A DNA stretch of 64,000 bases from Escherichia coli (GTDB lineage: Bacteria; Pseudomonadota; Gammaproteobacteria; Enterobacterales; Enterobacteriaceae), in assembly GCF_003334405.1 (NCBI RefSeq), contig NZ_QOWM01000009.1, one strand, 5' to 3'. The notes below the pieces were generated by a model. That model did no database searches, was not told the DNA's origin, and saw nothing but the letters and a program-made list of their open reading frames with translations. The translations under genes and the position numbers were made by a program. Positions 29,289 through 31,960 of the stretch are shown piece after piece. Numbering within the stretch: the first letter of the stretch is position 1; the number at the start of each line of letters is the position of its first letter.

Positions 29289-31841
29289 TCAGAACAATTC
29301 CTGTGCCTCGCCATTATCGATAATGGTCGTTCCCACCTCGTGCACTGCCTGTTGTGTCGGCTGCGTACCTTCGATGAAATACTCTTCGCGGCTGTTGCCA
29401 CCATTAGCTAACTGCCCGGTGCTGCGATCGATATTCACCGTCACAATACCCGGTGGCGGCGTCAGCGGCTGCTCCGGCACACCTTCAAGAACGGCTTTCA
29501 TATAAGCGTCCCATGCAGGCTGGGCACTCTTGGCACCGCCTTCGTAACCTGAGATCTGATCTTTAATCGCTCCGGAAGCCGTTGTATGACCGAGATTACG
29601 ACGGTGATCATCAAAGCCAATCCAGACCGAGGTCACAACGCCCGGACCGTAACCCGAGAACCACGCATCTTTCGAACTGTTAGTGGTCCCGGTTTTCCCG
29701 CCGATATCGCGACGCTGCAAATCACGACCTGCACGCCAGCCAGTACCCTGCCAGCCTGGCTCACCAAAGATATTGGTGTTCAAAGCACTCTTAATCAGGA
29801 ATGCCAGCGGAGTGTTGATGACGTGCGGTGCGTACTCCTGCGCGCCAGTCTTCGCCACTAACGCCTGATTTGCCTGCTCCAGCTGCGGCATTGGTACAGA
29901 AACATTCTGCTGCTCGCGGGAGATAGCGACATCTTCAACATCGTTATTTTCCAGCACGTTCGATTTCTGCGTATCACCGTAAATCACCGGAATATCGCAT
30001 TCCGGGCAGGCTACTTTCGGTTTCGCTTCGAAAATCACGCCGCCCTGATCGTTTTCAATTTTGCTGATAAACCACGGGTCCACCAGGAAGCCGCCGTTCG
30101 CCATGACCGCGTAGCCGCGCGCCACCTGCATTGGGGTGAAGGACGCTGAACCCAGCGCCAGCGATTCGGTGTGGACAATGTTTTGTGCCGGGAAGCCGAA
30201 GCGTTGCAGATATTCTGCAGCGTAGTCGACGCCCATCGCCCGCATTGCGCGTACCATCACCACGTTTTTCGACTGACCCAGCCCCTGACGTAAGCGAATT
30301 GGACCAGCATACTGCGGTGGTGAGTTCTTCGGCTGCCAGTCAGAACCGGCACTTGCATCCCAGCGAGAAATTGGCACATCGTTCAACATACTTGCCAGCG
30401 TCAGACCTTTATCCATCGCCGCGGTGTAGAGGAACGGTTTGATGTTGGAACCCACCTGACGCAGTGCCTGGGTGGCGCGGTTAAACTTGCTCTGATTGAA
30501 ATCAAAGCCACCGACCAGCGCCATAACGGCACCGTTTTGCGGATTGATCGACACCAGCGCCGAGTTCACTTCCGGCACTTGTGCCAGCCACCATGCATCG
30601 CCAACCTGACGAACCCAGATTTGCTGACCCGTTTGCAGAACATCGGTCACTTTACGCGGCGTCGGTCCTTGCTGAGTATCCGAACGGTAAGGACGCGCCC
30701 AGCGAACGCCTTCCATACTCAATGCGACGGTCGACCCGTCCGCCAGCATCGCCGTCGCTTGCTGAGGATTGGCGCTGGTGACTGCGGCAGGCAGCAGCGG
30801 ACCATAGGTTGGCAGCGCCTTCAGCGTATCGGTAATCTTGTTGTTATCCCACGCCGACTCGCCCACTTTCCACAGCACATTTGCCGGGCCGCGATAGCCG
30901 TGGCGCATGTCGTAGTCCAGCACGTTATTACGTACCGCCTGCTGCGCGGCCTGCTGCACTTTGCGGGTGATGGTGGTGTAAATGCGATAACCGTCTTCAT
31001 AGGCACTTTCGCCATAACGGTTATACATCTCCTGGCGCACCATTTCGCTCAGGTACGGCGCAGAGAAAGCAATCTCCGGCGCGTGATAGTTAGCGTTAAT
31101 CGCCTCAGTGCGTGTCTGATCGAACTGTTGTTGGGTGATATACCCTTCATCCAGCATCCGCGACAGCACGACGTTACGCCGCGCGACGGCACGATCCATC
31201 GAGTAGAGCGGGTTGAAGGTGGAAGGCGCTTTCGGCAGCCCGGCTATCACCGCCATTTCGTTCAGCGTCAGTTGGTCGACCGTTTTTCCGAAATAGACTT
31301 GTGCCGCAGCACCGACACCATAGGCGCGGTAACCAAGGTAAATCTTGTTCAGATAAAGCTCGAGGATCTCGTCTTTCGTCAGCAGCTGTTCAATGCGAAT
31401 CGCGAGGAAGACTTCCTTAATCTTACGCATCAGCGTGCGTTCTGGACTGAGGAAGAAGTTTCTCGCCAGCTGCTGGGTAATGGTACTTGCCCCTTGTGAC
31501 GCGTGACCGGAGAACAGCGCCACGCTTGCTGCACGGAAGATCCCCACCGGGTCAACGCCGTGATGCTCGTAGAAGCGGCTGTCTTCTGTCGCGATAAAGG
31601 CTTTCACCATCTCCGGTGGGATTTGATCCAACGTAACCGGAATACGACGTTTCTCACCGTATTGAGCAATCAGCTCGCCATCGGCGCTGTAAATCTGCAT
31701 CGGAATTTGCAGGCGAACATCTTTTAATGTCGCCACATCCGGCAGTTGTGGCTCGATGTAGCGGTATAGGCCATAAATCGAGCCTGCTCCCAGCAGAATG
31801 CAACAGACTGCAAGGATCAAAAAATACTTTACGAACTTCAC
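29289..31841 (-). CDS. mrcA: Penicillin-binding protein 1A (bifunctional transglycosylase/transpeptidase)
   Basis: Glycosyltransferase motif EDSRFYEHHG and transpeptidase motifs SNIKP and KTGTT. Start placed at GTG 31839-31841 (MKFVKYFLIL..., 850 aa); an in-frame ATG lies 8 codons upstream at 31865. Confidence 0.93.
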   Translation of the reverse strand: MKFVKYFLILAVCCILLGAGSIYGLYRYIEPQLPDVATLKDVRLQIPMQIYSADGELIAQYGEKRRIPVTLDQIPPEMVKAFIATEDSRFYEHHGVDPVGIFRAASVALFSGHASQGASTITQQLARNFFLSPERTLMRKIKEVFLAIRIEQLLTKDEILELYLNKIYLGYRAYGVGAAAQVYFGKTVDQLTLNEMAVIAGLPKAPSTFNPLYSMDRAVARRNVVLSRMLDEGYITQQQFDQTRTEAINANYHAPEIAFSAPYLSEMVRQEMYNRYGESAYEDGYRIYTTITRKVQQAAQQAVRNNVLDYDMRHGYRGPANVLWKVGESAWDNNKITDTLKALPTYGPLLPAAVTSANPQQATAMLADGSTVALSMEGVRWARPYRSDTQQGPTPRKVTDVLQTGQQIWVRQVGDAWWLAQVPEVNSALVSINPQNGAVMALVGGFDFNQSKFNRATQALRQVGSNIKPFLYTAAMDKGLTLASMLNDVPISRWDASAGSDWQPKNSPPQYAGPIRLRQGLGQSKNVVMVRAMRAMGVDYAAEYLQRFGFPAQNIVHTESLALGSASFTPMQVARGYAVMANGGFLVDPWFISKIENDQGGVIFEAKPKVACPECDIPVIYGDTQKSNVLENNDVEDVAISREQQNVSVPMPQLEQANQALVAKTGAQEYAPHVINTPLAFLIKSALNTNIFGEPGWQGTGWRAGRDLQRRDIGGKTGTTNSSKDAWFSGYGPGVVTSVWIGFDDHRRNLGHTTASGAIKDQISGYEGGAKSAQPAWDAYMKAVLEGVPEQPLTPPPGIVTVNIDRSTGQLANGGNSREEYFIEGTQPTQQAVHEVGTTIIDNGEAQELF

Positions 31842-31960
31842 TGGAAATTTCCCATTTAGTTTCATTTGGGCAGTTTATAAACAAACGCGCGGTAGTATAA
31901 AGGCAAGCCAGACGCATTGATATACCCGTCAGAGTGACGGGTGATAAGGAGATCATCACA

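Follow-up and report, generated by a model that had tools for sequence, protein, structure and literature searches.

Comparative data point to a conserved GTG, rather than the in-frame ATG eight codons upstream, as the translation start of Escherichia coli mrcA

The window analyzed here, a 64,000-nucleotide stretch of Escherichia coli DNA, carries on its minus strand the gene mrcA, which encodes the bifunctional peptidoglycan glycosyltransferase/transpeptidase PBP1a. The coding sequence (29289 to 31841, minus strand; 850 aa plus stop) is delimited by the list of open reading frames, by RefSeq entries that start at 31841, and by the family profile NF008643. The preliminary description of this DNA had named the gene mrcA/PBP1a, and that identification is correct: the protein scores 1882.9 bits against the NCBIfam MrcA equivalog NF008643, well above the cut-off of 1263, and 578 bits against TIGR02074 (PBP_1a_fam; cut-off, 508.75). 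Homologues are annotated with PF00912, PF17092, and PF00905, and this MrcA has the class A PBP architecture of an N-terminal anchor together with glycosyltransferase and transpeptidase domains. It is the same gene as K-12 mrcA (ponA; NP_417855.4; NF008643, PRK11636), with nothing different about it, and a 501-bp region around the start is 100% identical to that of K-12 EMG2. The neighbors are also those of K-12, with nudE downstream of mrcA and hofM divergent from it; the hofM start ATG (31961 to 31963, plus strand; the RefSeq hofM CDS start) is preceded by a strong AAGGAG and lies 119 bp from the mrcA GTG.

Two in-frame codons could in principle open this gene. The minus strand reads ...TAA ACT GCC CAA ATG AAA CTA AAT GGG AAA TTT CCA GTG AAG TTC GTA AAG..., with the translation *TAQMKLNGKFPVKFVKYFLILAVCC. 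The GTG (31839 to 31841, minus strand) opens MKFVKYFLIL..., and the ATG (31863 to 31865, minus strand; offset −24) lies exactly eight codons upstream and would add MKLNGKFP; the preliminary description had placed the two codons at these positions, and the minus-strand reading bears it out. Between them lie seven codons (31842 to 31862, minus strand) that would encode KLNGKFP if translated. An in-frame TAA (31877 to 31875) three codons away forms the upstream boundary of the ATG, so that the longest open reading frame (29289 to 31865) encodes 858 aa and the GTG form 850 aa. Given the base composition of the window, an in-frame ATG is expected before the first upstream stop by chance in ~26% of cases, and any of ATG, GTG, and TTG in ~52%. 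The co-occurrence of ATG and GTG at mrcA is thus no more than chance expectation.

The choice of start does alter the cytoplasmic tail ahead of the membrane anchor, as had been proposed from the sequence: the tail is either MKFVK or MKLNGKFPVKFVK, and FLILAVCCILLGAGSIYGL follows in both cases. The anchor, FLILAVCCILLGAGSIYGL, is encoded at 31767 to 31823 (minus strand) and comprises residues 7 to 25 of the 850-aa form, where a 19-residue Kyte-Doolittle window reaches its maximum of 2.36. Digestion with trypsin would leave only fragments of 2 to 4 residues from either N-terminus (MK/FVK or MK/LNGK/FPVK/FVK), with the anchor itself as the following peptide, so N-terminal proteomics with trypsin is poorly suited to this protein.

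A GTG start for mrcA is not new and already stands in the current reference annotation. RefSeq/PGAP starts the gene at GTG in K-12 EMG2, APEC, O157, and MG1655 (NP_417855.4; MG1655 mrcA, b3396, occupies 3522871..3525423). Public databases nevertheless carry three start calls, of 858 aa (ATG), 850 aa (GTG), and 843 aa (TTG, codon 8), of which the first and the last survive only in older records or those of other pipelines. The 858-aa sequences have been deposited for both E. coli and Salmonella by several sources, and they could be cited, together with the longest-ORF rule and the rank of ATG as the commonest bacterial start codon, for the ATG as the true main start. The RefSeq usage stands against that reading, as does the curated family profile: NF008643 aligns over its full length (1-850/850) to residues 9 to 858 of the long form, so the profile begins at the GTG-encoded Met. 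Gammaproteobacterial homologues, among them those of Vibrio, Pasteurellaceae, and Shewanella type, share with the 850-aa form a short basic tail, M-[KR]-x-x-K, followed by the anchor. Solved structures of homologues, all of soluble constructs without the N-terminus, include none that is informative about the start.

Further evidence comes from orthologous loci. We compared 86 related bacteria, made up of 80 Enterobacterales orthologous loci and 6 more distant loci, and computed column statistics on alignments of 81 sequences. The codon at the mrcA start position is GTG in all 80 Enterobacterales orthologues, with no variation at any of its three bases across the 81 aligned sequences. Five of the distant loci (Dickeya, Plesiomonas, a Morganellaceae-like contig, and two Vibrionaceae) likewise have GTG at this position, while Haemophilus has ATG; a switch between GTG and ATG at one position is the behavior of a start codon and not of a valine codon. 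The codon at −24, by contrast with the GTG, is ATG in only 24 of the 80 loci; 8 have GTG and 12 have TTG, and the remaining 36 have no start codon there. The ATG is missing from that position in all six distant loci, and E. albertii, the closest relative, has GTG there. Four loci, two of Klebsiella (L022, L024) and two of Serratia (L061, L076), have an in-frame stop within −24 to −1, in one case behind an ATG, and these orthologues are unable to make the extension because of those stops. Judged by the alignments, a start-capable codon is conserved at the homologous position for the GTG at 31841 and not for the ATG at 31865. The Klebsiella and Serratia stops and the 36 non-start codons, set beside a GTG that is kept in every one of these loci, leave almost no credence for an 858-aa main product.

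Within E. coli itself the picture is uniform, with a 70-nt leader, ATG included, identical in 5,422 of 5,427 records. Since the whole leader is monomorphic, this identity holds no information specific to the ATG, and within the species it lends no support to the ATG being dispensable.

The pattern of substitution changes at the GTG. Across the 81 sequences, entropy by codon position over +4 to +90 is 0.20/0.12/0.60, the periodicity of a coding sequence, versus 0.63/0.80/0.57 over the eight codons from −24 to −1, which include the ATG. The −24 triplet is the most variable of the region (1.58/1.23/1.11 bits), and the would-be extension peptides vary nonsynonymously (MKLNGKFP, MPLNGKSP, MTLNGKSP, MKLNGNPP, and others). 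On these alignments, codon-periodic variation starts at the GTG, and the eight codons upstream of it evolve like noncoding DNA. The least conserved stretch is −25 to −15, around the ATG. Positions −14 to −8 are near-invariant and +1 to +17 fully invariant, an extent of about a 30S footprint centered on the GTG. Promoter or other regulatory DNA of hofM could be an alternative cause of the conservation of GGGAA and codons 1 to 5, because the hofM CRP-S fragment lies within mrcA.

The near-invariant positions include GGGAA (31849 to 31853, minus strand), the only Shine-Dalgarno (SD)-like element by anti-SD duplex and conservation, 8 to 12 nt upstream of the GTG. Its GGGA(A) duplex with the 3′ end of 16S rRNA has a predicted energy of −4.2 kcal/mol at a spacing of ~7 nt to the GTG, a weak value, as ~40% of random 20-mers from the window pair equally well; the argument from SD pairing is accordingly no more than relative, and SD strength alone cannot settle the mrcA start. 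GGGAA is near-invariant in the 81 sequences, and among the distant loci Vibrionaceae L087 and Plesiomonas L090 retain it and Vibrio L088 retains GGGA, while flanking bases have changed. Duplex energy calculations found no SD-like complementarity 5 to 10 nt upstream of the ATG at 31865, where the best anti-SD duplex (+0.9 kcal/mol) is weaker than 99.9% of random 20-mers. A search of 31700 to 32100 for Rfam elements returned none at an E value of ≤1. In E. coli a small local hairpin, UGGGA:UUCCA, is predicted immediately ahead of the GUG; its pairing, compared by eye, is not kept in other genera, and we set it aside.

The conservation of ATGGGAAA could also be explained by an out-of-frame mini-ORF encoding MGNFQ* (ATG GGA AAT TTC CAG TGA; its ATG at 31855 to 31853) that would drive mrcA by termination-reinitiation, its TGA overlapping the GTG as GTGA. 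The triplet A-T-G at −14 to −12 is present in 79 to 81 of 81 Enterobacterales, at a fixed spacing to the GTG and with a universal TGA overlap, and pairing with the anti-SD leaves the invariance of A−14 and T−13 unexplained. The TGA, however, is forced by the GTG and the conserved AAG codon that follows it, and the mini-ORF's own ATG has no SD (dG −0.8). Its ATG becomes ACG in Vibrionaceae L087 and GCG in Plesiomonas L090, and locus L086 has lost the mini-ORF frame through a 1-nt deletion, yet the GTG and GGGAA persist. We dropped such coupling as highly improbable, since the start and frame of the mini-ORF are not conserved where the GTG is.

Initiation at both codons of the mrcA frame deserves more weight, unlikely as we hold it to be. 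In E. coli and those relatives that bear the ATG, a minority of initiation events at the SD-less AUG would yield a minor 858-aa isoform beside the 850-aa protein. SD-less initiation is known in E. coli, and AUG initiates intrinsically better than GUG. The AUG, moreover, is probably on the transcript if a conserved TATACT serves as the −10. TATACT, a −10-like hexamer identified by its invariance (31894 to 31899, minus strand; offset −58 to −53), is followed by the GC-rich ACCGCGCG, and TTTATACTA is invariant in the 81 sequences and present also in Dickeya, locus L086, Vibrionaceae L087, Haemophilus, and Plesiomonas. We infer that TATACT is the −10 element of the mrcA promoter and that transcription starts near −46, which would place the ATG on the mrcA mRNA. 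TATAAA at −38 to −33, considered as a check on a leaderless ATG, would put the transcription start at about −26; the hexamer ends without the key T and reads TAGAAA in Enterobacter/Leclercia-type loci. The one site returned by a promoter consensus scan lies within hofM, and the scan was of no help for mrcA. The AUG further lies in an A/U-rich stretch, with AAA as the next codon, and the predicted unpaired probability of its region is similar to that of the GTG region (~0.45 versus 0.40). Escherichia, Salmonella, and Citrobacter retain ATG or GTG at −24, and the near-complete invariance among the E. coli records might be read in the same direction.

Against these points stand the unfavorable duplex energy upstream of the ATG, the loss, frameshift, or stop-terminated fate of the −24 codon in most genera, the lack of protein-level constraint on the extension peptide, and an E. 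coli invariance that covers the whole leader and not the ATG specifically. Upstream in-frame starts are also rare genome-wide in the Ribo-RET data as given in the text of the preprint (bioRxiv 10.1101/520783), which reports 6 in BW25113 and 36 in BL21. The main text of that preprint makes no mention of mrcA, and neither do the main text and the portion of supplementary text covered for TetRP (PMC4909307). Neither mrcA nor b3396 was matched in the supplementary text covered for Cappable-seq (PMC4782308), SMRT-Cappable-seq (PMC6131387), an E. coli/Klebsiella transcription start site study (PMC3415461), TRAINSPOTTER N-terminomics (PMC13245402), and a 2026 paper on bidirectional promoters (PMC12825309), which is not to be equated with absence of signal.

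Were such low-frequency initiation to occur in Escherichia, Salmonella, and Citrobacter, which we judge improbable, it would supply a second PBP1a isoform with a tail eight residues longer and doubly more basic, and membrane insertion or interactions at the cytoplasmic face could change as a result. The alpha and gamma isoforms of PBP1b (mrcB) arise by alternative translation initiation. PBP1b, likewise of class A, has two in-frame starts that set the length of its cytoplasmic tail, and it offers a loose parallel. Unlike PBP1b, however, mrcA has a second start that is without an SD and is not conserved, and we found no record of two mrcA products.

The reading that best accommodates these data, and that we consider very probable from comparative sequence evidence, is that the GTG at 31841 to 31839 starts an 850-aa PBP1a and that the upstream ATG is an ordinary leader triplet, without a ribosome binding site and not under selection. 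Translation would begin with fMet-Lys-Phe-Val-Lys and pass directly into the single membrane anchor, with the weak SD-like GGGA(A) 8 to 12 nt upstream positioning the ribosome on the GTG; a weak SD together with GUG initiation would be in keeping with a gene held at low expression. The ATG would have arisen, or persisted, only in that part of the tree which holds Escherichia, Citrobacter, Salmonella, Kosakonia, and Phytobacter, and, if the putative promoter and transcription start are correctly placed, it would be present on the mRNA yet essentially unused. The preliminary description had called the start ambiguous. That ambiguity is real for a reader with the sequence only, and the 858-aa form does stand in public records, but the GTG is favored alike by conservation, substitutions, the position of the SD-like element, the family profile, and RefSeq.

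With an SD-less in-frame ATG that lies a few codons upstream of a non-ATG start and is chosen by some gene callers, the mrcA case resembles the class of longest-ORF mis-annotations that were corrected from one E. coli K-12 annotation release to another and that tetracycline- and retapamulin-based ribosome profiling has examined (PMC4909307; bioRxiv 10.1101/520783). It differs from those profiled cases in that its start assignment rests on comparative evidence rather than on a published initiation peak. The question of the start matters little beyond annotation hygiene. It is nonetheless a clean case in which comparative data settle a start codon that lies beyond the reach of SD strength alone. 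The 850-aa GTG form is the one to use for cloning, tagging, and modeling of PBP1a, and the 858-aa (ATG) and 843-aa (TTG) records should be treated as gene-caller artefacts.

The most unusual feature near the mrcA start is a near-invariant intergenic block of ~58 nt between mrcA and hofM (31866 to 31923), with a mean column entropy of 0.23 bits in the 81 Enterobacterales. The block holds TATACT, the palindrome GTTTATAAAC (31873 to 31882), and TATAAA (31874 to 31879), and it is probably a shared promoter. Designs for mutagenesis or CRISPRi around the start of mrcA need to reckon with the regulatory DNA of the divergent competence operon hofMNOPQ, which lies in this 120-bp interval. A divergent arrangement is also seen in the distant loci, all six of which have a PilM_2 gene divergent from mrcA.

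The gene at issue is mrcA, which encodes PBP1a (score 1882.9 bits for NCBIfam equivalog NF008643, whose cut-off is 1263), and its neighbors are the divergent hofM, whose ATG at 31961 lies 119 bp from the mrcA GTG, and, downstream, nudE. The longest mrcA reading frame (29289..31865, minus strand) yields 858 amino acids from an ATG at 31865..31863, and the form read from the GTG at 31841..31839 has 850. The preliminary description had placed this in-frame ATG eight codons upstream of the GTG, and the minus-strand reading, TAA ACT GCC CAA ATG AAA CTA AAT GGG AAA TTT CCA GTG AAG TTC GTA AAG (translated *TAQMKLNGKFPVKFVKYFLIL…), bears that out. 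Its further claim, that the start is ambiguous, is only partly supported: both codons are present, but the choice between them is hardly open, because the GTG is conserved and already annotated. We are highly confident that the GTG is the conserved, previously annotated start of mrcA, making it a known and ordinary start, and the ATG is, by the comparisons below, a lineage-restricted triplet of the mrcA leader. The chance of an in-frame ATG ahead of the first upstream stop is ~26% at the base composition of the window, a piece of E. coli chromosome, so its presence is statistically unremarkable.

The comparative record among 80 orthologous loci, one per species, from Enterobacteriaceae, Erwiniaceae, and Yersiniaceae carries this conclusion. 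The position homologous to the E. coli GTG is GTG in 80/80 loci. At offset −24, counted on the mrcA strand from the first base of that GTG, 24 loci have ATG, 12 TTG, and 8 GTG, and the other 36 have no start codon; Escherichia albertii, the closest relative, departs from E. coli precisely here, with GTG, and an in-frame stop interrupts −24..−1 in two Klebsiella loci (L022, L024) and two Serratia loci (L061, L076). In the 81-sequence alignment, variability across the whole region peaks at the three bases of the ATG (1.58, 1.23, and 1.11 bits). Entropy per codon position over +4..+90 (0.20/0.12/0.60 bits) bears the expected coding signature; that over −24..−1 (0.63/0.80/0.57 bits) lacks third-position bias. 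Even where the ATG is present, the extension peptide varies freely (MKLNGKFP, MPLNGKSP, MTLNGKSP, MKLNGNPP, and others). By the same alignment, −14..−8 is near-invariant and +1..+17 fully invariant, a conserved stretch that approximates a 30S initiation footprint in size and position, centered on the GTG. The 70-nt mrcA leader is identical in 5422/5427 E. coli records, and the 501 bp at the mrcA start match K-12 strain EMG2 at 100% identity and recur in every one of the 5,426 complete E. coli genomes; leader identity within E. coli stems from constraint along its full length and is uninformative on the ATG specifically.

Six more distant loci, retrieved via protein homologues, extend this pattern. 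GTG-AAG occupies the homologous start in Dickeya, a Morganellaceae-like contig, Plesiomonas, and two Vibrionaceae, and Haemophilus pittmaniae has ATG at that position, a GTG/ATG exchange that is start-codon behavior, unlike that of a valine codon. None of the six has an in-frame ATG at −24. Predicted gammaproteobacterial N termini (MKFIKRLL…, MRIAKLIL…, MKWLKRIL…) carry a short basic tail as in the 850-aa form, and extensions made by gene callers in homologues, e.g., …SPVKFIKRLL, repeat the same artefact.

Public records show that the ambiguity is real among gene callers, yet settled in the curated reference. RefSeq/PGAP starts mrcA at the GTG in K-12 EMG2, an APEC strain, O157:H7, and MG1655 (b3396, 3522871..3525423, NP_417855.4), and E. 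coli and Salmonella records from several sources carry the 858-aa product. In the 858-aa form, residues 9-858 are the part covered by the 850-position MrcA profile, and the family model therefore starts at the GTG-encoded Met. A third call, a TTG at 31818..31820 (Leu8, codon 8), appears in GenBank as BED38630.1 (843 aa, MILAVCC…); this call is almost certainly an artefact of gene prediction, because it would remove both lysines of the PBP1a cytoplasmic tail.

The Shine-Dalgarno (SD) comparison proposed in the preliminary description favors the GTG only in relative terms: no SD precedes the ATG, and the sole SD-like element is correctly placed for the GTG, but that element is weak. The GTG, through GGGA at a spacing of ~7 nt, has a duplex energy with the 16S rRNA 3′ end of −4.2 kcal/mol; the ATG at −24 comes to +0.9, and an out-of-frame ATG at −14 to −0.8. 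Since ~40% of random 20-mers from the window pair as well as the SD of the GTG, the analysis by itself is unconvincing. The element is nevertheless retained as GGGAA or GGGA out to Vibrionaceae and Plesiomonas. Predicted accessibility is alike at the ATG and GTG sites (0.45 and 0.40), and GGGAA has a predicted unpaired probability of 0.33 in E. coli. There, the predicted minimum free energy structure pairs UGGGA with UUCCA just 5′ of the GUG in a hairpin of 5 bp closing a 3-nt loop (31842..31854), a pairing that a by-eye comparison did not find kept in other genera.

Minor, low-level, SD-less initiation at the mrcA AUG in E. coli is conceivable, though its prior is low given how few upstream in-frame starts Ribo-RET has recovered: only 6 in BW25113 and 36 in BL21, in a report whose main text does not name mrcA (bioRxiv 10.1101/520783). 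Tryptic N-terminal proteomics would not tell the 850-aa from the 858-aa form, because both N termini would be cleaved to pieces of 2 to 4 residues; the N terminus is missing in all solved structures of homologues.

The out-of-frame ATG opens a five-codon mini-ORF, ATG GGA AAT TTC CAG TGA (ATG 31853..31855, TGA 31838..31840), whose stop overlaps the mrcA GTG as GTGA. Its ATG (−14..−12) is near-invariant in Enterobacterales. We reject termination-reinitiation coupling through it: the ATG is ACG in Vibrionaceae and GCG in Plesiomonas, and the frame is lost to a 1-nt deletion in locus L086. These loci retain GGGAA and the GTG, and the constraint therefore falls on GGGAA or overlapping DNA signals, not on an upstream ORF; the mini-ORF is probably a by-product of the conserved GGGAA. 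Across 81 species, 31825..31841 (mrcA codons 1-5 and two bases of codon 6; GTGAAGTTCGTAAAGTA) shows zero synonymous variation, a pattern that implies nucleotide-level constraint on the first codons, either as a translation initiation region or as hofM regulatory DNA.

Data on hofM bear on the latter. Cameron and Redfield (2006; PMC1635313) gave primers and an electrophoretic mobility shift (EMSA) fragment for the CRP-S of yrfD (hofM). That fragment maps to 31685..31810, with both primers inside the mrcA coding sequence (+32..+157). The hofM CRP-S sites reported there thus fall in mrcA codons 11-53, 150-275 bp ahead of the hofM ATG, which means that the control region of hofM takes in the mrcA start. 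Conservation of GGGAA and codons 1-5 may accordingly be partly DNA-level rather than translational, the chief caveat on reading conservation of −14..−8 and +1..+17 as evidence for the GTG.

Between the genes, a near-invariant block of ~58 nt (31866..31923, offsets −82..−25; ATATCAATGCGTCTGGCTTGCCTTTATACTACCGCGCGTTTGTTTATAAACTGCCCAA) averages 0.23 bits across 81 Enterobacterales species, outdoing many nearby coding positions. Its TTTATACTA and GTTTATAAAC are kept in Plesiomonas and the Morganellaceae-like contig, and TTTATACTA also in the Vibrionaceae locus L087 and Haemophilus; the block has zero Rfam matches, and we found no published function for it. TATACT (−58..−53) makes a good candidate −10 hexamer, with GC-rich ACCGCGCG after it; it would place the mrcA transcription start site (TSS) near −46 and hence the ATG inside a leader of ~45 nt. 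An alternative hexamer, TATAAA (−38..−33), lacks the final T and is TAGAAA in Enterobacter/Leclercia-type loci; from it, the TSS would fall 1-2 nt ahead of the ATG. Either strand of the invariant heptamer TATACTA (31893..31899) can be read as a −10: TATACT for mrcA, and TAGTAT for hofM. A distance of 18 bp separates the two predicted TSSs, the arrangement most often seen in symmetric E. coli bidirectional promoters (PMC12825309), and a single candidate bidirectional core promoter might thus serve both mrcA and the hofMNOPQ competence operon. The hofM start is likewise ambiguous (31934..31963, plus strand): the longest ORF runs from a GTG at 31934 (268 aa), and RefSeq starts at the ATG at 31961 (259 aa), with a strong AAGGAG SD 9 nt upstream. 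In E. coli O157:H7 FRIK2533 (L003), the record lists hofM as a frameshifted pseudogene, with the mrcA leader unaltered.
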